Source: a virus. From it: 64,000 nt of DNA. The notes under the pieces are model-generated. The model was not told the DNA's origin, did not search any database, and saw only the letters and a program-made list of their open reading frames with translations. The stretch covers positions 32,001 through 96,000 of IMG/VR virus record IMGVR_UViG_3300046328_000321; one strand, written 5' to 3'. The stretch's first letter is position 1. Every line of letters starts with the position of its first letter. The position numbers and the translations under genes are program-made. Below, one piece after another: positions 11,378-61,079 of this stretch.

Positions 11378-11822
11378 GCAAAGTGTAGTTGTCTTGGTGG
11401 GTATAAATGATAACTTAGGACAGATATTACAAAGCCATATAACAGAAATGTTATACATGTTACTCGGTAACACATTTCCCAGATACATTTTAAATGAAAC
11501 TTGTAGAGAAACTTATAGAAATCTAGTTAAGCAAATTATTGATAATACATCCGATGATTATTCTGATTTTTGTTTAAACTTATTGTCTTTACCAAATTTC
11601 AATGGACTTCCTTACGTCCATGGAGAACATCATCCGTTTGCTTACTGTGATGAGAAACATATGGCTGGACTTAATTTTGCCATAAGGCAATTAGGTACTT
11701 CTCTATTCTTTTCTATTGCTAAAAACAAACCTTCTGGTATGTATTTGAATAATATCAACTACATAGATACTGATACCATTGGTCTGCTCTACAAACAAAT
11801 GGTTGTGGAGTCCGTACTCTGA
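11370..11822 (+). CDS. Hypothetical protein
   Basis: Overlapping start/stop coupling. Confidence 0.6.
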   Translation: MSKQSVVVLVGINDNLGQILQSHITEMLYMLLGNTFPRYILNETCRETYRNLVKQIIDNTSDDYSDFCLNLLSLPNFNGLPYVHGEHHPFAYCDEKHMAGLNFAIRQLGTSLFFSIAKNKPSGMYLNNINYIDTDTIGLLYKQMVVESVL

Positions 11823-15605: not shown

Positions 15606-16175
15606 ATGAGTTCAAGAAAAATAAGTGATATGTTACTATTACCCACACCGATGGGTCTAGAACAAACAGTAGTTGCTGTAAATGGTGTTAACTACCGTGT
15701 TACACTAAACGCTATTAAATCACTGGTAACAAAAGCGGATCTAGGATTAGGGAATGTCGACAACACAAGTGACATGGGTAAACCTATATCCACACTTATG
15801 TTAACTGCTTTAAATAATAAATCAGATACTTCGCATTCACATTCAATATCTGATGTAGTGGGTTTAATACAGTATATAACAGACCAACTGTCTATTCTAG
15901 CTGCATCTATGGCAAGTCTAGGACATACACATCAAGTATCAGATATTTTAGATTTAGTAAACCAGTTAAATAATAAAGTCAACATAAATGACTTAACAGC
16001 AATATCTATTTCCATAGATAATCTAAATACTGCTTTGTTAAATAAAACAAATATAGGACATTCACATACATCTAATGATATCTCAGACTTTGTTACCGAA
16101 GTCCAAAACATCGTCAATGCTATGGGGTTCGGAACACTGTTAAATGTCGTTACGATTGGTGACATACAGTGGTAA
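15606..16175 (+). CDS. Tail fibre-like protein
   Basis: GLGNVDNTSD plus three HxHxxxD(I/V) repeats. Confidence 0.7.
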   Translation: MSSRKISDMLLLPTPMGLEQTVVAVNGVNYRVTLNAIKSLVTKADLGLGNVDNTSDMGKPISTLMLTALNNKSDTSHSHSISDVVGLIQYITDQLSILAASMASLGHTHQVSDILDLVNQLNNKVNINDLTAISISIDNLNTALLNKTNIGHSHTSNDISDFVTEVQNIVNAMGFGTLLNVVTIGDIQW

Positions 16176-16227
16176 ATTTAATCCACTCACGATATTTTAT
16201 TCTTTCATAATTCCGTAGGAGTTAAGC

Positions 16228-16800
16228 ATGGCACAATTAAAGATTTCTAAGGTCACAAGTCTTCCAGGCACTTTTGATCCATCGACCCTTTATCTGGTTT
16301 CAGATGCGGTTCGCACAGATGATGTCAACATCTATGTTTCTAACAGTGCTGGTACTGCTGTCAAGCATGTGCCAACCTTTGCCGAATTAGAAACAATGGT
16401 AGATACCAAGATAGCTGCTGGTATTTCAGCCGCCTCAGCTTTACGAGTCGTTGCAGATATTACTGCTCGTAATGCATTGAATCCAACGGTCACTACTTTG
16501 GCACTTGTGTTGGACGCCACTGATGATATTTCGGTAACATCCGGTGCCGCTACTTATGTCTTCACAAATAATGGTGAAGATCCATGGACGAAGATCACTG
16601 AATATGAATCGCTCGATGTTGCAATTCAGTGGGACAATATTCTTTACAAACCAGCATCTACTGTTACAGATATAGATGATGCTGTCACCAAGCGTCACAC
16701 ACATACCAATAAAGCTGTATTAGATTTATTGACGTTCACTACCGTACTTGAATACAATGGTCAACCTGTTGTACCTCAACTGGTCGCTGAGCAATGGTGA
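16228..16800 (+). CDS. Tail fibre-associated virion protein
   Basis: KVTSLP..PSTLYLV N-terminus, VADITARNAL, DDAVTKRHTHTN. Confidence 0.65.
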   Translation: MAQLKISKVTSLPGTFDPSTLYLVSDAVRTDDVNIYVSNSAGTAVKHVPTFAELETMVDTKIAAGISAASALRVVADITARNALNPTVTTLALVLDATDDISVTSGAATYVFTNNGEDPWTKITEYESLDVAIQWDNILYKPASTVTDIDDAVTKRHTHTNKAVLDLLTFTTVLEYNGQPVVPQLVAEQW

Positions 16801-43921: not shown

Positions 43922-45757
43922 ATGGCTATCATTCACGACGACAAAATCACCACCTCTGCTCCTAAGGTACAAGACCAGCATGTTAATACCAACACTGCTG
44001 CCGTACAGCGTAATAGCTGGAACTTTGGTTCCGGTGGTAATATTTTTGCGGCACCTATTGGTCGCAGTATCGGTTCAGAAGTTTACAACGAGCTGAAAGG
44101 TTCGCTGATTGAGATTTATAAGAATGCTCAAAGTGATGCGTCTATCTCCATCTTGGACATGGATAATCAAAACGAAAGTGCTCTTGCATTTTCATGTCTG
44201 ATTGTTGCCATGCGGTTGAAGAACGTCCCCAATAAGGTTGCATATCACATTCTGATGTTGGAAGCTACCGGTGAACGTCCAAATCCAGTAATCCAATATA
44301 ATGGATCTAAGCAGATTGAACTACATCGTACTGCCGGCGATGCGATCGATGATATCCTTATTGGTAAGGCAAAGAGTATTGTTCAACGTGCATTTCCTTC
44401 TCATGAAACCCATTATACCGACACCACTGTCGTACCAGCGGGTTTCAATATGAAGGACAAAGCGGCTGTATACAAGTTGGCGTTGAATGCTGGTCTAGCC
44501 AACGGTACCGAATTGGAAACTTCTTCCAACACGTTCCAGGATCTGAATGTGAGTCAGATTCCCCAAGGTCAGCAATTGGTAGTGAACATGACCTTCGGGT
44601 CCACACCCATCGCCGATGATGTCGGTAACCTGATGCGTTCTGACTTCCAATTGAGCTTTGCTGCACAAAACAGTAAAGCTCAAAACAATCAGTCGTTGAA
44701 CAGTGGGGGTCGTGAGACTCGTATTGCTGACGTGGCTGGTTTTGTGGAAATGCTTTGGGCACCTGTGGAACCCATGGTCAATCCATACATGCCTGTGCAA
44801 CAACGACAGACACAGAAATTTGCTGCTCGTTCTGTCATCACCAGCATGACTTCTACACACAGCTATACTCCTGGATCTATGCTGTTGGCTGTGGCTATGT
44901 TGGACGCTTTGGCTCTCCATAATAACTATTACCAAGTCTTCCGTCCCTCTATGACGAAAGATCTGGATATTCGTGATGTGGGTGCCCTGAATATTGAAGG
45001 TAACTACGATAACAACCCAACCGGTGTGTCGTCTGTACTGGATACCAAGTCCTCCAGCTTCTCTCATGAGAACCTGGGTATGTTCTTGAATGCTTTAGTG
45101 CGTCCTGGTATGTTGGTGGCTATCGATTGTCCAGTCGGCGGTGCTCAATCTTGGTATACAGGTCTGTACGATGCAGCTTCCACTCGTGGTGGTTCTGCCT
45201 ATGACATCTTATACACAGCTGCGCAAGAACTGACGAATGGTAACTTTGCTCGTTTGTTCCCCAAGGGTGCACAGATGTTCTTGGATGCGGGTAATCGTAT
45301 TCATACGGGTATCTATACTGATCGCCAAGGTGCTCAGCGTGATATTCGAGATATCGACTATCTTGCAGCAGCAAACATTCTGGGTGCTAATAACGTGCAA
45401 GCGTTGCGTCAGTACACTGAAACATTCTGGAATCAGAACATCAGCTTGGCTGAGCGTTTGTCGGATCGTAAGCGTATGATTTCCAGCATGACCAACGAGA
45501 CTGCTACTTTTACCGGGTATGCAAATCGAGTTACTTTTTCTGGTACTTTCATCGAAGCACTACGTAAAGGTATCCAGGCATGTAACATGAATGTACGGAT
45601 CAACAGTCCGATGAGCGGTGCAGATTTCAACGCTCAACGCGGCGTTGCAACATTTGCTAACGCAGGTCTGATTGTACCTACCGGTTCGTTCATGGGTTTT
45701 GGCATTGCTCCTCAACACATGCAAAACATGATGCACATGGGTGGTTACCGCTATTAA
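43922..45757 (+). CDS. chmA: Chimallin (phage nuclear shell protein, phiKZ gp54-like)
   Basis: 611 aa, immediately upstream of the nvRNAP beta-prime gene, own promoter and terminator, codon bias suggesting high expression; co-occurs with PhuZ. Confidence 0.8.
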   Translation: MAIIHDDKITTSAPKVQDQHVNTNTAAVQRNSWNFGSGGNIFAAPIGRSIGSEVYNELKGSLIEIYKNAQSDASISILDMDNQNESALAFSCLIVAMRLKNVPNKVAYHILMLEATGERPNPVIQYNGSKQIELHRTAGDAIDDILIGKAKSIVQRAFPSHETHYTDTTVVPAGFNMKDKAAVYKLALNAGLANGTELETSSNTFQDLNVSQIPQGQQLVVNMTFGSTPIADDVGNLMRSDFQLSFAAQNSKAQNNQSLNSGGRETRIADVAGFVEMLWAPVEPMVNPYMPVQQRQTQKFAARSVITSMTSTHSYTPGSMLLAVAMLDALALHNNYYQVFRPSMTKDLDIRDVGALNIEGNYDNNPTGVSSVLDTKSSSFSHENLGMFLNALVRPGMLVAIDCPVGGAQSWYTGLYDAASTRGGSAYDILYTAAQELTNGNFARLFPKGAQMFLDAGNRIHTGIYTDRQGAQRDIRDIDYLAAANILGANNVQALRQYTETFWNQNISLAERLSDRKRMISSMTNETATFTGYANRVTFSGTFIEALRKGIQACNMNVRINSPMSGADFNAQRGVATFANAGLIVPTGSFMGFGIAPQHMQNMMHMGGYRY

Positions 45758-45916: not shown

Positions 45917-48748
45917 ATGCCTGTCATACAGGAAATCATTCAGTTTGATGATATGTTTCATAAACTACATCACACACCTACTCTTATTAACCACATAGCT
46001 TGCGCCACATTGGAAGATAGGGAGAAGGTAAAAGAAATTCTTACCACTCATCTTAACAGTGATCAGATAAGTTTAGTACCTTCATGTCAATGCGGAGCTA
46101 CTAAAGGTGAATATTCCAAGAGTATGGTTTGTCCCGTCTGTAATACAGAAGTAAAAACTTCTGTGACTACAGATATCGAACCAGTAGTCTGGCTGAAGCA
46201 ACCAGAGAGTGTGGATAAGTTGATCAGTCCTATCTTTCTGATGATGTTAATCAAAAGGTTTACCAAATCAGGATTCTCAGTGATCGAATGGTTATGTAAT
46301 ACAAATTACTCTTCGACATCTAAACCTCCTGATAAAGTATTAGCTAAAATCCAGACATGTGGGATTGAACGAGGTTATAACAACTTCGTTAGGAATTTTG
46401 ATCCTATTATGGATTTGTTGTTTTCATTCATTGAGTTTGCTCCTAAAACTCAAAAGTTTGAAATGAAACAAGAAGACAAAATAGATCATTTACAACAACT
46501 AATCAGAGATCACAGAAACGCGATCTTTAGTGAGTATTTACCCATCCCAAATAAGATCATTTTGATCTTTGACACCCAGCCATTAGGGACTTATACTGAT
46601 CCTTCAGTAATGAAAGCTGTGGATGCTATTAACACAATGGTGTCCATTGATCGAGATTTCTATGATCAGAGTTCAAAAACCAAACAGAACCGTACGATCA
46701 AAGCTTTGATGTTACTTTGTGATTTTTATAACGATACCTTATTGTTAATGGCACATAAGCATGGTCATTTCCGTAAGCACATGTTTGGTAGTAGAACCAA
46801 TTTTTCTTTCCGAGCTGTAATCACATCGATTACAGCCGGTAAGAATTATGATGAGATCGAAGCTCCATGGTGTATGGCAATCACAGCATTCCGTATTCAT
46901 TTGTTGAATAAACTTTTGAAATACGGTATGGGTCATAACGAAGGGTTAGGATTTTTGTATAAACATACGTACAAACACCATTCTCTTCTGGAAAGATTCA
47001 TGCAGGAGATGATTGATGAGACCCCAATGAAAGGTATTTTCATTTGTTTGCAACGCAATTAACTATTTAGGTTGCCTTTATCAGTAATGGTAAAGTAAAA
47101 TTCTCCTTAATTGACGGGAACATCCTGCTAAAAACTTGTACACCAAACTACAATAGAAATATATGTAGCGGCCAAGGTAACTACTTGGGTATGGTAAAAG
47201 AAACAAGTCTGGGATAATCCGCAGCCGAACTCTTAACCAGAAATGGAAAGAGATGGGTTCAACGACTAGTCGAAAGACGTAACTCTTAGCAAGAGTGAAA
47301 CAGGAGACCCCTTTTGTATAAAAGGGTGAAGATATAGTCTGCTCTCGTATGAATAATACGAGCGGGTGTCGTAGCACACCGGGTAAAGAGAGTAAGCTGT
47401 TTAAGCTGAGCGACTTTACTGGACAATGGCCGAGTTTGTTACAAGGGTCAGCTCAACGAGTGAAAATCACAAAGTTCAAAACTAACCCTATGGACTTGAC
47501 TATAGGGATGCACATCTTAACAGTGCGTGCTAATCATTATTGGCATTTAACCAGGTAACTGGTTAAAGAATCTCTTCGAATTGCTGGAAACTCCTTAGAG
47601 TCTCATTACCACTGCGAGCTGTAAAGCAAAGCCACGGTTTAAAAAGTATGAGAATTGGACAATCAGCAGCGAAACTTCCTACGGGAAGTACGTTCAACGA
47701 TCATCGGAGTTACGCCCGAGTAGAACCTCAAGCGAGGAAGAAGTGGAGAGCACCCTACTATTTATGAGGGTGAAGATATGATCTGTTCCTGTATGAAAAT
47801 ACAGGCGGGTGTCTTAGCACACCGAGTAAAGAGAGTAAGCTATTATAGCTGAGCGGCTTTACTGGACAATAAGCCAAATGCTGATCAAAAGGTCCTCTTA
47901 ACTTGCGAAGGTTAAGATGTATTTCCTGAATTGCTGGGAACTCTCGTTAGACTGTTGAACTAAAGCGGAGTGTGAAAACACAAACGTAAATGTTTGAAAA
48001 TCAGCAGGTAGAGACAATCAGCAGCTAAGACGCTAAAGACAGTTGTGAAACTGGCTATGCGTAAAGTTCAACGACTATCCGGTAGCACGGAGTAGACCCA
48101 TGAGGGTCAAAGTAGGAAACGTCTCTAGGAAGACGGTGATATAGTCTGCTCTCACATGAGAATGTGAGCGGGTGTCAAAGCACACCGGGTGAGGAATCGA
48201 AAGATGGCTTCACTGGACAAAAGGTTTGATGGTAGAGTATTGCCATCTCTAAACATTCTTAACTGCGGGAAACTCCTTAGAGCTTTGTTGACCAACCTGT
48301 GGTAGAAATACACACAGCGGCTGAACTAACTATTCAGATATGGTAAAACTAACAAAGATTGGACAATCCGCACCGAAGCTCCTAACTAAGTATATTAACA
48401 TATACTTACATGGAGTGTGGCCAACGACTATCCCGTAAGGGAGTACACTCAAGCGAGTGGAAACAGAATGTACCGAAAGGTAAAGATATAGTCTAATCAG
48501 ATATGAAAGTATCTGGATCCTTAAGCAAGATCGATGAGTAGTAGCGTACTCAGGTTGGTGCTAGAGAGTTATGGTTTATGGATGCTCTCAACGTATCCAT
48601 AGCTCTTGATCAGAAAATGTCAGATATGTGGTATCCACTTTCACCGGAGTTCAACATCTTCCAAATGACAAAACCATTTCAAGTATCGGGAAACATAGCG
48701 ATCCCTAAACCTAACATCGCTACCATTTCATCTTGGTTGGAAAACTAG
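45917..48748 (+). CDS. rpoC: nvRNAP beta-prime N-terminal subunit (phiKZ gp55-like), 5 exons: 45917-47059, 47430-47531, 47874-47885, 48225-48233, 48581-48748; 477 aa spliced
   Basis: Zinc finger CQC..CPVC, FRKHMFGSR, FRAVI; splicing restores QRNPSL and PNADFDGD in frame. Confidence 0.92.
47060..47429 (+). ncRNA. Group I intron 1 (370 nt, no ORF)
   Basis: P1 gcaau/guugc with U.G; P aattgacgggaa, Q aatccgcagc, R gttcaacgacta, S aagatatagtct; terminal G. Confidence 0.92.
47532..47873 (+). ncRNA. Group I intron 2 (342 nt, no ORF)
   Basis: P1 ugcu/ggca; P aattgctggaaa, Q aatcagcagc, P7 gatca/tgatc (compensatory variant); terminal G. Confidence 0.92.
47886..48224 (+). ncRNA. Group I intron 3 (339 nt, no ORF)
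   Basis: P1 gau/guc; P aattgctgggaa, Q aatcagcagc, R gttcaacgacta, S gatatagtct; terminal G. Confidence 0.9.
48234..48580 (+). ncRNA. Group I intron 4 (347 nt, no ORF)
   Basis: P1 gauggu/gccauc; P aactgcgggaaa, Q aatccgcacc, R ccaacgacta, S aagatatagtct; terminal G. Confidence 0.92.
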
Positions 48749-54802: not shown

Positions 54803-56259
54803 ATTTTATCGGTATGTCTAAACAATCTTTGCGTGTGGCTAAACTCACCATGCAGGAGACGGGTACTTATAACCCAGTACATCAGCGTCCCTATATGACG
54901 CATGTTTCAGGGGACTTAATGCAGTCTATCGGTCAACGTCTAGAACAAGTTGGTAATAACACTATTTCTGGATCTGTGCTGGGTGGCATCGCAAGTTCGA
55001 TCATGTCTCCATCTGCCACTCCTGGTAATGTGGTGCAAATCCCTTATGGTTGGGCTGAGCGTCGCATTCGTTTCATTCTTGAAGTCCATGCGACGAGCAA
55101 TACAGGTATCACCACCATCTTTTATTTTCAAGGTTTCACAGACCATTTGGGTGTAAGTGTTAATGGACATGTAGATCCTAATATGAGTTTTGTACTTAAC
55201 AGTTATATTCGAGTTAATCGAATTGAGCAGTTGGGACCTATGGGGTACACAGTGCGCGACACAGTGACTCAATCGTCACAGGTGATCAACCCCGATCCAT
55301 CGGAAGCCATGAAACAGACGTACAAAATGCGTCCGCAAGAAGTATTTACAGGCATTCAATCCGGATACATTGAGAATGCACACAGCTACACAGAACCAGG
55401 CGTTGGTTTTATTGATGGACGATTGCGTTTAGGTACAGAAGCTATTGGTAGTAATAGAGATAATAACTTACCAGCTTCATACGTAAGTAAAGTTTTTGAA
55501 TCGCATCGGCAAGCGTGTGCACTTGCAGATTTTGGTCAAAATGACGCGGACATTTTGACACGAGGTAGTCAACTGGCTCTTGACACCATGATAGGTGAGA
55601 ATCCGTTTGTTCGAGCCTTAGGTGCTGTTCGCGGTATGATGAATGCTACAACATTCACATATGGAGATCTGATGAAGATTGACCCTAATACATCCGCTGT
55701 GACCAACATGATTCGTTTAGGATACACACATCAAACGGCGGTTCATCAGACTGGTCAAACTGAGTATTGGAATGGAGCTAATCGTGAAACTGTAGTGGCT
55801 ACTATGTTGTCCAATGCGGTACCAGCCATCATGATGAGTTTGTTCATTTCAAAAGTGTCATTCATGAGTACTAACCACAGCTCTATGGGTCAAATCCATA
55901 CGCAATTATTGGGTGGTTCTTCTGTAACTGCTGCTGACATGACCCACGCATTTCAGATTCTTCGAAATCGCTTAGATAATGAAATCTTCATGGATATCTC
56001 TTACGGCGGTCAACAGTTGTACACCTTAGAAATGGAAGTAGATATTTTTGGTGAGACAAAAATTAATATTGCCATCGACGGTGGTCCTTCGATTATCTAT
56101 GTGACACCATCATTCTGCGATGGTTTGCTTGTACCTGTTTTGGCTCCTAATCGTCAGGTGTTCGATCACAACGTACATAATTTCGAACAAATGTTTAAAG
56201 TTGTAGAACAAGTATCGACACCAATGCAAACTGGTAATACCATCAATAACACAATCTGA
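54799..56259 (+). CDS. Nuclear-shell import factor candidate (phiKZ gp69/PicA/Imp1-like)
   Basis: ETGTY....RPY, GW.ERR.RF, PSFCDGL..PV; position between gp68-like and gp70-like genes. Confidence 0.6.
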   Translation: MNFIGMSKQSLRVAKLTMQETGTYNPVHQRPYMTHVSGDLMQSIGQRLEQVGNNTISGSVLGGIASSIMSPSATPGNVVQIPYGWAERRIRFILEVHATSNTGITTIFYFQGFTDHLGVSVNGHVDPNMSFVLNSYIRVNRIEQLGPMGYTVRDTVTQSSQVINPDPSEAMKQTYKMRPQEVFTGIQSGYIENAHSYTEPGVGFIDGRLRLGTEAIGSNRDNNLPASYVSKVFESHRQACALADFGQNDADILTRGSQLALDTMIGENPFVRALGAVRGMMNATTFTYGDLMKIDPNTSAVTNMIRLGYTHQTAVHQTGQTEYWNGANRETVVATMLSNAVPAIMMSLFISKVSFMSTNHSSMGQIHTQLLGGSSVTAADMTHAFQILRNRLDNEIFMDISYGGQQLYTLEMEVDIFGETKINIAIDGGPSIIYVTPSFCDGLLVPVLAPNRQVFDHNVHNFEQMFKVVEQVSTPMQTGNTINNTI

Positions 56260-58106: not shown

Positions 58107-58610
58107 ATGAACATCTTTGTTCTGGATTTAGATCCTAAGACATCAGCAAGATATTTGTGTAATGAACATTGCTGTAAGATGGTTGTGGAATCCGCTCAAA
58201 TGTTATCTACAGCACACAGACTTAAGTCAGATGACACAGACGGACTTTACAAATTAGCTCACATCAATCATCCATCTACTATTTGGACCAGAGAATCGGT
58301 AGAAAATTACTTGTGGCATTATGAATACTTTTGCTATATGGCAGAAGAGTATGAGGAACGTTATGGTAAGATTCATTTAACATACATGATGTTAAAGAAC
58401 AGACTTCAGTTACCTCCAGAGAAAATAACGGAAACTAAAAGGACTCCGTTTACTTTGTGTATGCCGGAAATTTATAAACAGGACGATCCCGTTCAAGCTT
58501 ATAGAGCTTTTTATATAGGTGAAAAACTTAAGTTTGCTCACTGGTCTTTACCATCAACAATACCATCATGGATCATCAAACACGTAAGGAACAATCATGC
58601 AGAACAATGA
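58107..58610 (+). CDS. Pyrimidine-dimer DNA glycosylase / DenV-related protein
   Basis: MNIFVLD...H..KM.VESAQMLSTAH, YKLAHINHPS.IW, RYGKIH, VQAYRAFY. Confidence 0.75.
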   Translation: MNIFVLDLDPKTSARYLCNEHCCKMVVESAQMLSTAHRLKSDDTDGLYKLAHINHPSTIWTRESVENYLWHYEYFCYMAEEYEERYGKIHLTYMMLKNRLQLPPEKITETKRTPFTLCMPEIYKQDDPVQAYRAFYIGEKLKFAHWSLPSTIPSWIIKHVRNNHAEQ

Positions 58611-61079
58611 ACTGAAACTTCAATATGTGGGTATACAAGGACTTAATTCTTACTGTATGCATAATTCATCATCACGAGCTGTGATGTTTTCTTCTCACAT
58701 TGGACAACGTCTGGTAATTGAAGGAGCTCAACAGAAACTTGTACAAACTGGGCTTGAACAAGAATTTGGTAAATATACGTTCAATGTCAAGATGCCTGAG
58801 AATGGTCGTATTGTTGCTATCTTAGACAGGTATCCTCGTGGTGTAGGTAGTAAATCTCTTAATTTCAATCCAGAGACCTATGTCTTCTTTGAACGTGAAG
58901 ACAACAAGCAAGTAGATTATATTCTCATCCCGTACAAAGCTCAGTTCCATCAGAATTTTGGTTTTAAGTACAAGATGAATAAGAAAAATATCGGAAAGCT
59001 TCAGCCAGGTGCTTATATTGCAAAAGATACTATTTTTGCAGACAGTCCTGCTGTTTCTGACAATGGTAATTTCATGTTTGGTATCAATGCCAACATTGCC
59101 CTGATGTCCATTCCCTCAGTGGCTGAAGATGGCATTATGATCTCCAGAGACTTTCTACCTAAGTTAAAGTTCAAGATTTATGATACTCGACAAGTCAACT
59201 TTGGATCTAAACAATTTCCATTGAACCTTTATGGTACTTTGGATGAAGTAAAACCATTTCCTGAGATCGGAGATAAGATTCGAGAAGATGGTATTTTGAT
59301 GGCTTTTAGAGACTTTAACACAGCTCTGTCTCCTGTTGAAATGTCTAAGATGGATTTAATGGAAGTAGATCACACTTTTGATGAATGTGTATATGTACGA
59401 GGTGGTGTGGGTACTGTGGTTGACATTAAGATTACCAGAAACAACTCACCTATTAAGAACATGCCTGTGGAAATGTCATGTTATCTGAACCGTTACTGGG
59501 AAGCCAATCAAGCTTTTTATAAGAAAGTTATTGATTTAGAAGCCGGTCTGCGTAAAGATAACCGAATGAAATTTGGAACCACTGATATTTTAACAACATC
59601 AAAGTTTGATAAATTAGTTTATGAGGCTATGGTGCATACTAACCATAACTTCAATCAGTTTAAACAACCTCTTCAACTCCAATCACGTAAGTCTACTGTA
59701 GACGAATACCAGATACAATTTACTATTGAATACACCATTGAACCCTGTGAAGGATTCAAATTGACTGATAATCACGGTTTTTACTAGCCGCTTTTGACAG
59801 AGATGTCAATCGATCATTTTCCTAATTGCGGGGAACCACCTAAAGCTTCATTGACCAACTTAGTTACGAAAGTAAGTTAAGGGCTACGCTAACTACGTAG
59901 GTATGGTAAAACTAATGAAGATATATGGGCAATCCGCACCGAAGCTCCTAACTAAGTATATTAACATATACTTACATGGAGTGTGGCCAACGACTATCCC
60001 GTAAGGGAGTAGGCTCATGAGAGTCGAAATGGAAAGCGTCCTACTGTTGAACAGAGGATGAAGATATAGTCTGTTCCTACATGAAAGTGTGGGTGGGTGT
60101 CACAGCACACCGGGTGAAGAATCGAAAGACGGCTTCACTGGACAAAAAGGGAAAAGGTGTTATTTGTAAAGTAGAAGAACCTGAGAACATGCCTGTCGAT
60201 GAAAATGGCAACCGTGCCGACATCGTCATGGATGCAGCTTCTACTATCTCACGTATGAACTTAGGCAGGCTTTACGAGCAACACATGGCATCTGCCTTGC
60301 GCGACGTTACTCAAAATGTTCGCATGTTGTTTGGATTTGAACGATTGAAACCAACATCCATTAAAGCTGAGAATTTGCTAGACAGTTTTCCAATTCAAAA
60401 GATCGAAGAAGCTCATCAGTACGTGTTAGGTTTCTATAACCTTATTTCAGAAAAGCAATATAACTTTTATTCTAAACTGACAGATCCTAAGCAAATTGCC
60501 GAGCATATCTGTGATATCATATCCGATCACGTTTATGCATATATTCCTATTGATAAACAGATCAGTAGTAAAGATATCGTGAAACGCATCGAGAATTCCA
60601 TATACAAACCCGTTTATGGAAAAATTACCTATCGAGGTAATTCTGGTGAGGTCGTGCTTACTGAACGAAATGTGCGCATTGCTCCTTTATACATGATGTT
60701 ATTGGAAAAAATCGCTGATGATTGGACAGCTGTAGCCACTGGTAATCTTCAGCTACATGGTTTACTGGCTCAGGTCAACAGACGTGAAAAGCATTCAAGA
60801 CCTCATAGGAACACTCCTGTTCGCACCATCGGTGAAACAGAGGGACGTTTATTTGTAGGTTATTGTGGAAGAGAAGCGGTCGCTGAGATGTTGGATCGTT
60901 CAGGTAATCCTCTTGTACAAAGACACATGACTAGGAACATTCTTGAAGCCAATCGTCCAACAAATATCAATGAGATTGTAGATCGTAACTTGGTTAACTA
61001 CGGTAATACCAAGTCTGTACAGATCATCAACCATATGTTTACTTGTATGGGTTTTAAAACCAAATACGTTCCAGAATGA
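58597..61079 (+). CDS. rpoB: nvRNAP beta subunit (phiKZ gp71-73-like), exons 58597-59778 and 60150-61079; 703 aa spliced
   Basis: NSSSRAVM, AEDG, spliced GFKLTDNHG-GKGVI, SRMNLGRLYE, GETE. Confidence 0.92.
59779..60149 (+). ncRNA. Group I intron 5 (371 nt, no ORF)
   Basis: P1 cggu/gccg; P aattgcggggaa, Q aatccgcacc, R ccaacgacta, S aagatatagtct; terminal G. Confidence 0.92.

Follow-up and report, generated by a model that had tools for sequence, protein, structure and literature searches.

A mosaic group I intron within a reticulate intron family in the RNA polymerase genes of a jumbo phage

How does a group I intron come to share one stretch, without a single difference, with an intron of another gene, and its 3' end with yet another intron? 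This question is raised by intron 5 (I5), located in the gene for a beta-subunit fragment of a non-virion RNA polymerase (nvRNAP; RNAP below stands for RNA polymerase) in the virus record IMGVR_UViG_3300046328_000321. The window analysed, 64,000 nucleotides (nt) in full, corresponds to bases 32001-96000 of this single viral contig of 113,368 bp (IMG/VR, linear, CheckV completeness 43%). The contig encodes a homologue of chimallin, the phage-nucleus shell protein (window 43922-45757, Pfam PF25677, E 6e-30), as well as the split beta and beta' subunits of two multisubunit RNAPs (PHROGs 2986, 2987, 3015, 3148 and 3295), and is therefore that of a nucleus-forming jumbo phage. An initial annotation had described I5 as a mosaic of introns 3 and 4 (I3 and I4), both in the nvRNAP beta' gene, formed within an intragenomic family of ribozymes that lack an open reading frame (ORF) and swap modules. 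We find that the mosaic and the module-swapping family are real, but that the backbone of I5 comes from neither of these two introns. Probably, I5 is a resident intron of the HGGKG motif that recombined with its paralogues by gene conversion of DNA, exchanging a block with I4 and having its 3' end in common with I3.

I5 scored 76.4 bits against the Rfam group I model RF00028, whose gathering score is 50, with model positions 1-253 aligned at 59769-60093. At the 5' splice site, exon CGGU (59775-59778) pairs with a GCCG guide (59787-90) and forms the wobble U59778.G59787, within a short P1 of 4-5 bp as read from the sequence; the terminal nucleotide is G60149. Excision joins ..TDNHG to GKGVICKVEE and restores the open frame. 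The joined exons, NHG/GKGVICK (the slash marks the insertion point), align to ..FGGKGVICK (..TDCFGGKGVICK) of the intron-less gp370 of Burkholderia phage FLC9, and the match to PHROG 3295 runs from position 402 to 403 straight across the junction, so that I5 indeed splits the HG/GKG motif of the beta subunit, as first proposed. No ORF of 60 amino acids (aa) or more, and hence no homing-endonuclease ORF of that size, was present within 59779-60149. A 31-nt insertion between the 5' strand of P7 and the 3' strand of P3 holds UCCCGUAAGGGA and GGCUC-AUGA-GAGUC, at the place where phage introns of the IA type carry two additional hairpins. I5 is a functional-looking ORF-less group I intron with a putative P7.1/P7.2 insertion and a P9.1/P9.2 extension at the 3' end.

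Two parts of I5 have close counterparts in other introns of the window (Table 1). First, 59930-60011 is the same, letter for letter, as 48364-48445 of I4: these 82 nt cannot be extended at either end and constitute the longest exact direct repeat in the window. Likeness between the two introns goes beyond the exact block, with 93% identity over 109 nt (59926-60034 against 48360-48468) and a blastn hit of 89% over 141 nt. Second, the tail of I5 (60095-60149) differs from that of I3 (48170-48224) at 4 of 55 ungapped positions, and the 3' likeness of these two introns reaches 85% over 94 nt (blastn, 88% over 85 nt); in the P7.2 region, I3 nt 184-223 and I5 nt 210-247 are 82.5% identical. The tail of I4 has a different architecture and, from P9.2 onwards, is 19-31% identical to all the other copies; introns 1 and 2 (I1 and I2) share a longer P9.2 version, at 89% over 73 nt. 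All four relations had been noted in the initial annotation and are confirmed here.

The best cultured protein match is phage FLC9, at about 41-42% identity. Megablast against cultured phages gave zero matches for the nvRNAP beta gene and, for the beta' gene region, only three intron matches of ~40 nt, all in unrelated phages. Since the nearest cultured relative shares only ~41% protein identity, IMG/VR relatives were used for intron polarity instead. The nearest of these are two contigs from different samples, with 87% and 77% protein identity in the two genes, and without any difference between them over the 9-kb loci examined. In the beta gene of this relative, an intron (R5) containing a 265-aa HNH ORF inside its P1 loop sits one codon downstream of the I5 site, at HGG/KG. 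Its beta' gene has introns at the I2 and I4 sites alone, those of I1 and I3 being empty. I5 is colinear with R5 (81% over 304 nt), and I4 with the intron R4 found at the same site in the relative (84% over 280 nt); both introns are therefore older than the split of the two phages. When I5, R5 and I4 are compared, I5 is R5-like along most of its length, and informative sites at nt 182-241 match I4; at the 3' end of I5, informative sites match I3 in a run. The idea of a mosaic of I3 and I4 is thus only partly supported, as I5 is not simply one joined to the other: it has a resident backbone with two patches, one identical to I4 (nt 152-233) and one, from P9.2 to the 3' end, resembling I3. The donor of each patch is held with less confidence than the mosaic itself.

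Statistical support for the mosaic came from several analyses. In max-chi-square tests, 0/500 permutations reached the observed value, for every one of six intron triplets and for each of three triplets that included positional homologues from the relative. Informative sites for the comparison of I5 with I4 and I3 form a run of more than 40 matching I4 and a terminal run of 32 matching I3. Trees built by module concur: for nt 61-147, I5 pairs with R5 (SH-like approximate likelihood ratio test, SH-aLRT, 100), for nt 148-233 it falls in a clade with I4 and R4 (SH-aLRT 97), and in the tail tree I4 pairs with R4 (SH-aLRT 100). Approximately unbiased (AU) tests reject the grouping of I5 with I3 for nt 61-147 (p=7e-5) and nt 148-233 (p=0.0013), and that of I5 with I4 in the tail (p=0.014). 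By module identities, max-chi-square, module trees and AU rejections alike, I5 is a recombinant.

We found nine group I introns in the contig, one in tRNA-Leu(UAA) and eight ORF-less members of one family, all of the latter in the beta and beta' genes of the two phage RNAPs. These eight introns match a single nhmmer profile, itself built from them, at 203-296 bits, and a search of the contig with this profile returned no partial family copies. Three members, IA, IB and IC, fall outside the window and are reticulate in the same way as those inside, which extends the module swapping seen initially. Indeed, the whole family is reticulate. In all-against-all blastn, in addition to the hits of I5 given above, IA matched IC at 98% over 100 nt, I3 matched IB at 95% over 107 nt and IA at 92% over 62 nt, IB matched IC at 95% over 40 nt, and I1 matched I2 at 87% over 105 nt. 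Nearest neighbours differ from module to module. For P3-P5, they are IA with IC (100%) and IB with I3 (96%); for P6-P7, IA with I3 (90%), IB with IC (91%) and I4 with I5 (100%); from P9.2 to the 3' end, I3 with I5 (91%), IB with IC (87%) and I1 with I2 (85%). Cross-type module identities are 33-55%. IA, IB, IC and I3 represent all four combinations of two P3-P5 types with two P6 types, a pattern that a single tree without exchange cannot produce.

The relative also informs on the age of the exchange between I4 and I5. The positional homologues of the 82-nt block are 93% identical over 71 nt in R4, and 92.5% over 67 nt in R5. Within the block I4 equals I5, while 5 of ~70 positions separate each of them from its positional homologue, and the two blocks share derived states together with a mix of R4-type and R5-type states. 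The blocks have therefore undergone concerted evolution after the split, probably with transfer in both directions.

The following scenario would account for these data. The family has colonised catalytic motifs of multisubunit RNAP genes in chimallin-encoding jumbo phages, and stretches of 10-23 nt in the core, identical between copies, would let introns recombine at the DNA level during replication. Such shared stretches are P3/J3-4 AAUUGC, the P4 3' strand AAUC(A/C)GCA, P7 CAACGACUA, J8/7 GAAGAUAUAGUCUG and the P9.1 hairpin. The outcome would be non-reciprocal gene conversion, with tracts of ~40-140 nt. I5 would have begun as a resident HGGKG intron, kin to the HNH-carrying intron of the sister phage and devoid of a nuclease ORF in its P1 loop; it would then have swapped the P4'-P6-P7.1 block with I4, very recently, with zero differences left; it shares its sequence from P9.2 to the 3' end with I3. 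By inspection, the edges of the exchanged blocks adjoin stretches that are near-identical in most copies (P4 3' strand, P7 CAACGACUA, J8/7-P7 GAAGAUAUAGUCUG and P9.1), which is what homology-seeded gene conversion would give. Both host genes are still colinear, so that the events would be conversions, not crossovers. DNA-level gene conversion, probably seeded in the conserved core motifs, is thus the most likely mechanism, and all copies presumably continue to splice.

Several points weigh against this reading. The direction of transfer is ambiguous, as I4 also carries I5/R5-like states. A grouping of I5 with R5 is not rejected by AU tests for the 82-nt module (p=0.21) or for the tail (p=0.41); both modules are short, and the long and short P9.2 forms enter the test only as gaps. 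For this reason we do not take phylogeny alone as proof of the donors of the two patches. The origin of the tail in I3 would rest mainly on the ~37 nt from P9.2 to the 3' end, and a short P9.2 of similar type occurs in a distant contig (L028), so that this piece of I5 could have come from outside the genome. The splicing of I5 is predicted from its sequence. Lastly, the contig is metagenomic, and the identity of the block rests on its assembly.

The L028 hairpin leads to a different view, in which the patches were imported from introns of co-infecting phages, by homing or inter-genome recombination, and not exchanged within the genome. The family is widespread: jumbo-phage contigs of IMG/VR contain ~32 distinct copies, almost all of them within RNAP genes, and the HNH genes of relatives drive such transfer with co-conversion; moreover, IC has here an IA-type P3-P5 module, and the intron at the same site in the relative is of the IB/I3 type. 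Against import, the closest match of each patch lies inside the genome (100% for I4 and I5, 100% for IA and IC, 96% for IB and I3), whereas outside it the I5 patches find at best 92.5-93% identity (82-nt block) and ~90-91% (tail). An outside donor of the block would also have to strike both sites with the same sequence. We thus regard import as unlikely. An assembly artefact would require that the metagenome assembler collapsed or swapped similar introns, leaving a false identical block or a false chimera, and repeats of 80-140 nt are indeed near short-read k-mer sizes. However, a wrong join would link beta' to beta exons, and both genes are colinear and in frame on either side of the block, whose flanks in I5 follow the R5-type backbone. 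De Bruijn assembly does not make two different sequences identical in two contexts, five other intron pairs show the same kind of mosaic, and the introns of the relative are identical in two contigs from different samples, all of which makes an artefact very improbable. Finally, it is hardly credible that I5 is a recent duplicate of I4 (or the reverse) whose ends diverged fast around a frozen core without any recombination: group I cores do evolve more slowly than peripheral hairpins, and I4 and I5 are mutually the closest copies overall (60% identity), but two elements that the family does not conserve, the peripheral P6a hairpin and P7.1, fall inside the identical block, the colinearity of the I5 5' half with R5 and of full-length I4 with R4 implies that both predate the split, and the tail architecture of I4 is common to R4 while the I5 tail follows the family type.

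Table 1. Introns, exons and I5 modules. Positions are those of the window unless marked as contig positions; slashes mark insertion points.
Feature	Position	Strand	Evidence or remark
Exon 1, nvRNAP beta-fragment gene	58597..59778	+	PHROG 3295 positions 6-402, E 5e-113
I5, 371-nt ORF-less group I intron, nvRNAP beta-fragment gene, HG/GKG	59779..60149	+	RF00028
I5 5' half: P1, P2, P3, P4 5' strand, extended P5; resident backbone, closest to R5	59779..59929	+	Module tree, AU, triplet test
I5 block identical to I4: P4 3' strand, P6/P6a, J6/7, P7 5' strand, P7.1	59930..60011	+	Exact identity over 82 nt
I5 P7.2, P3 3' strand, P8; single donor not evident, P7.2 somewhat I3-like	60012..60053	+	40-60% identity to all copies
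I5 J8/7, P7 3' strand, P9, P9.1; family-conserved stretch	60054..60112	+	74-85% identity to every copy except I4
I5 P9.2 hairpin and 3' terminal ..CUGGACAAAAAG; short P9.2 form, common to I3	60113..60149	+	91% to I3, 24-54% to other copies
Exon 2, nvRNAP beta-fragment gene	60150..61079	+	PHROG 3295 positions 403-690; Pfam RNA_pol_Rpb2_6, E 4e-11
I1, nvRNAP beta' gene, ..LQRN/PSL..; long P9.2 tail	47060..47429	+	RF00028, 79.1 bits
I2, nvRNAP beta' gene, between ..TVRA and PNAD; long P9.2 tail	47532..47873	+	RF00028, 87.7 bits
I3, nvRNAP beta' gene, NAD/FDG; P9.2-to-3' end (about 48187-48224) matches I5	47886..48224	+	RF00028, 68.5 bits
I4, nvRNAP beta' gene, NADFDGD motif, FDG/D; 82-nt partner 48364-48445	48234..48580	+	RF00028, 68.4 bits; exon junctions from alignment to FLC9 gp381
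IA and IB, virion-RNAP beta' gene, LGAD/FD/GD			Outside window
IC, virion-RNAP beta gene, after ..NDD (two conserved Asp)	contig 15677-16253		Upstream of window; no nuclease ORF

We next considered how introns without a nuclease reached their sites. Spread by reverse splicing or through HNH enzymes acting in trans, as suggested in the initial annotation, is a conjecture. At the sites of I5, I2 and IC, the introns of relatives or of phage PhiPA3 hold HNH ORFs of 265 aa or 532 aa, or ~1 kb extra, in the P1 loop; the 532-aa ORF, in the I2-site intron of the nearest relative (contig L041, 5302-6900), matches PHROG 59 and PHROG 959 (HNH endonuclease). A simple alternative is therefore that introns homed to these three sites and later lost the nuclease, which is at least as likely there as nuclease-free spread. 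I1 and I3 are ORF-less, and none of the relatives examined has an intron at their sites: the exons flanking the I1 site are contiguous in L041, L043, L016 and L024, and at the I3 site of L041 CCAAATGCTGAT is followed directly by TTTGACGGT. A more distant relative, 40% identical, is intron-free throughout the corresponding loci. PHROG 374, to which the HNH protein of R5 corresponds, had no match in the contig. Two free-standing HNH-like ORFs flank a tRNA cluster, at window 31039-31536 (165 aa) and 32160-32735 (191 aa), the second of which matches PHROG 59 (HNH endonuclease); they are possible candidates for nucleases that would help the ORF-less introns in trans.

Within HGGKG, family introns are inserted at two points one codon apart, HG/GKG here and in three contigs, and HGG/KG in the nearest relative, three other contigs and PhiPA3. 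Guide sequences match the insertion point, GCCG for the former and GCCACC for the latter. Relatives also hold family introns at RNAP sites that are empty here. One of them (L017 3221-5951) interrupts the virion beta gene at residue 303/304, within exon 2; in L018 (896-1324), a family intron lies in the gene following the beta fragment, at residue 536/537, a site likewise empty in the contig. The contig has nine group I introns in 113 kb, the sister contig seven in 164 kb, and PhiPA3 four in 309 kb.

The 3' extension, present in seven of the eight contig copies, consists of P9, an invariant P9.1 hairpin, a variable P9.2 and a ..GGACAA..G end. I5 has all features of the chimallivirus RNAP-intron family with a P9.1/P9.2 tail, as we define it in this analysis: at 60097-60149 it shows the GGGUGUC-NNN-GCACACC hairpin, a covarying P9.2 and the ..GGACA(A/G)..G end. 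Among 25 family members from the contig and IMG/VR, 97.6% of the proposed tail pairs form, compensatory changes are seen in 10 pairs, and slid or shuffled controls all fell far short of this. P9.2 is backed by 4 pairs with compensatory changes and P9 covaries; P9.1 does not vary, an invariance that is partly built in, as IMG/VR copies were fished with that motif and only the seven in-genome copies are unbiased. Given this pairing and covariation, the tail belongs to the ribozyme and is not junk. The P9.1 sequence, GGGUGUC-NNN-GCACACC at 60097-60112 and in six other copies, is constant beside the freely covarying P9 and P9.2, and could mark a tertiary contact or a protein-binding site. A pairing of the conserved 3' GGACAA with J7/9 or with the 5' region was considered and dropped for want of covariation.

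Other observations concern the remaining introns. IA and IC have ~155 and ~220 extra nt in the P1 loop, between the 5' splice site and the guide (contig 11435-11590 and 15677-15897), and the IA insert holds a perfect 10-bp hairpin. Nuclease-gene remnants were sought in both inserts, and these had no likeness to the HNH-bearing introns of relatives. The tRNA-Leu(UAA) gene (window 31561-31890) is split by a group I intron of 240 nt (31592-31831) between tRNA positions 31 and 32, a site distinct from the cyanobacterial and plastid U34/A35 site. Its 5' exon ends in A, so that the splice-site pair would be A-U and not the usual U.G.

How does this case compare with known systems? Hall, Liu and Shub in 1989, and Bryk and Belfort in 1990, reportedly obtained domain exchange experimentally between the td, nrdB and sunY introns of phage T4, via shared core sequences. 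In both situations a single phage genome houses several related group I introns, crossovers within short shared core stretches give chimeric, still structured introns, and recombination acts at the DNA level. The T4 chimeras were laboratory-selected and entailed deletion of the DNA between introns, whereas the present case is natural, involves eight copies, leaves both host genes intact (conversion) and includes a zero-divergence tract. In Staphylococcus phage Twort, orf142 is said to contain three ORF-less group I introns, of subgroup IA, in one gene, as described by Landthaler and Shub in 1999. It resembles our contig by its several ORF-less introns, separated by short internal exons within a single phage gene, and differs by its host gene and intron lineage; we know of no module exchange described between the Twort copies.

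Gene 065 of PhiPA3 (HQ630627.1, about 55005-55454) holds an ORF-less family member at HGG/KG, with 79 bits against RF00028, 180 bits against the profile of our eight introns, and the same P9.1 hairpin and ..CUGGACAAAAAG end. Gene, HGGKG motif and intron family are those of I5, but the insertion lies one codon downstream and no mosaicism has been reported for this copy. In its record, gene 065 is annotated only as a 'fragment' misc_feature. In PhiKZ, gp71 and gp73 are separated by the HNH gene product gp72 (mentioned in PMC10914365). The PhiPA3 gp210 intron, in the virion RNAP beta gene, encodes an active nicking HNH endonuclease used in inter-phage competition (Birkholz et al., Science 2024, PMC11620839). 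Like the introns described here, it is a group I intron at a catalytic-site motif of a chimallivirus RNAP gene, and IC occupies the same site; in contrast to it, all eight copies here are without a nuclease ORF. Group I introns in chimallivirus RNAP genes (PhiPA3 gp210, PhiKZ gp71/72/73) and recombination between introns (T4) are thus already known. What is new is the scale and clarity of a natural case, with nine introns in 113 kb, a zero-divergence tract and the full set of four module combinations.

These introns provide natural evidence that ribozyme paralogues in one virus trade modules, some of the tracts being identical, which is much rarer than the laboratory chimeras of T4. Its eight copies, its five or more high-identity exchanges and the availability of a sister phage to set polarity make the contig a compact data set on the placement of crossovers relative to ribozyme domains, and on the compatibility of swapped modules. 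For annotation, it is a reminder that such RNAP genes are mis-called as fragments unless introns are modelled, PhiPA3 gene 065 being an example. The case is relevant to the persistence and spread of introns that have lost their homing nuclease, and raises the question of why the catalytic motifs of jumbo-phage RNAPs are so heavily colonised, intron nucleases being inter-phage weapons (PMC11620839). A speculative and rather doubtful reading is that the eight nuclease-free introns may be a co-evolving community, kept alike and in working order by frequent ectopic conversion in the phage nucleus and seeding sites beside occupied ones (I1, I3 and the one-codon shift of I5) via reverse splicing or with the help of free-standing HNH enzymes. 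If this were true, their dense occupation of RNAP catalytic motifs would shield these sites from the homing nucleases of competing phages.

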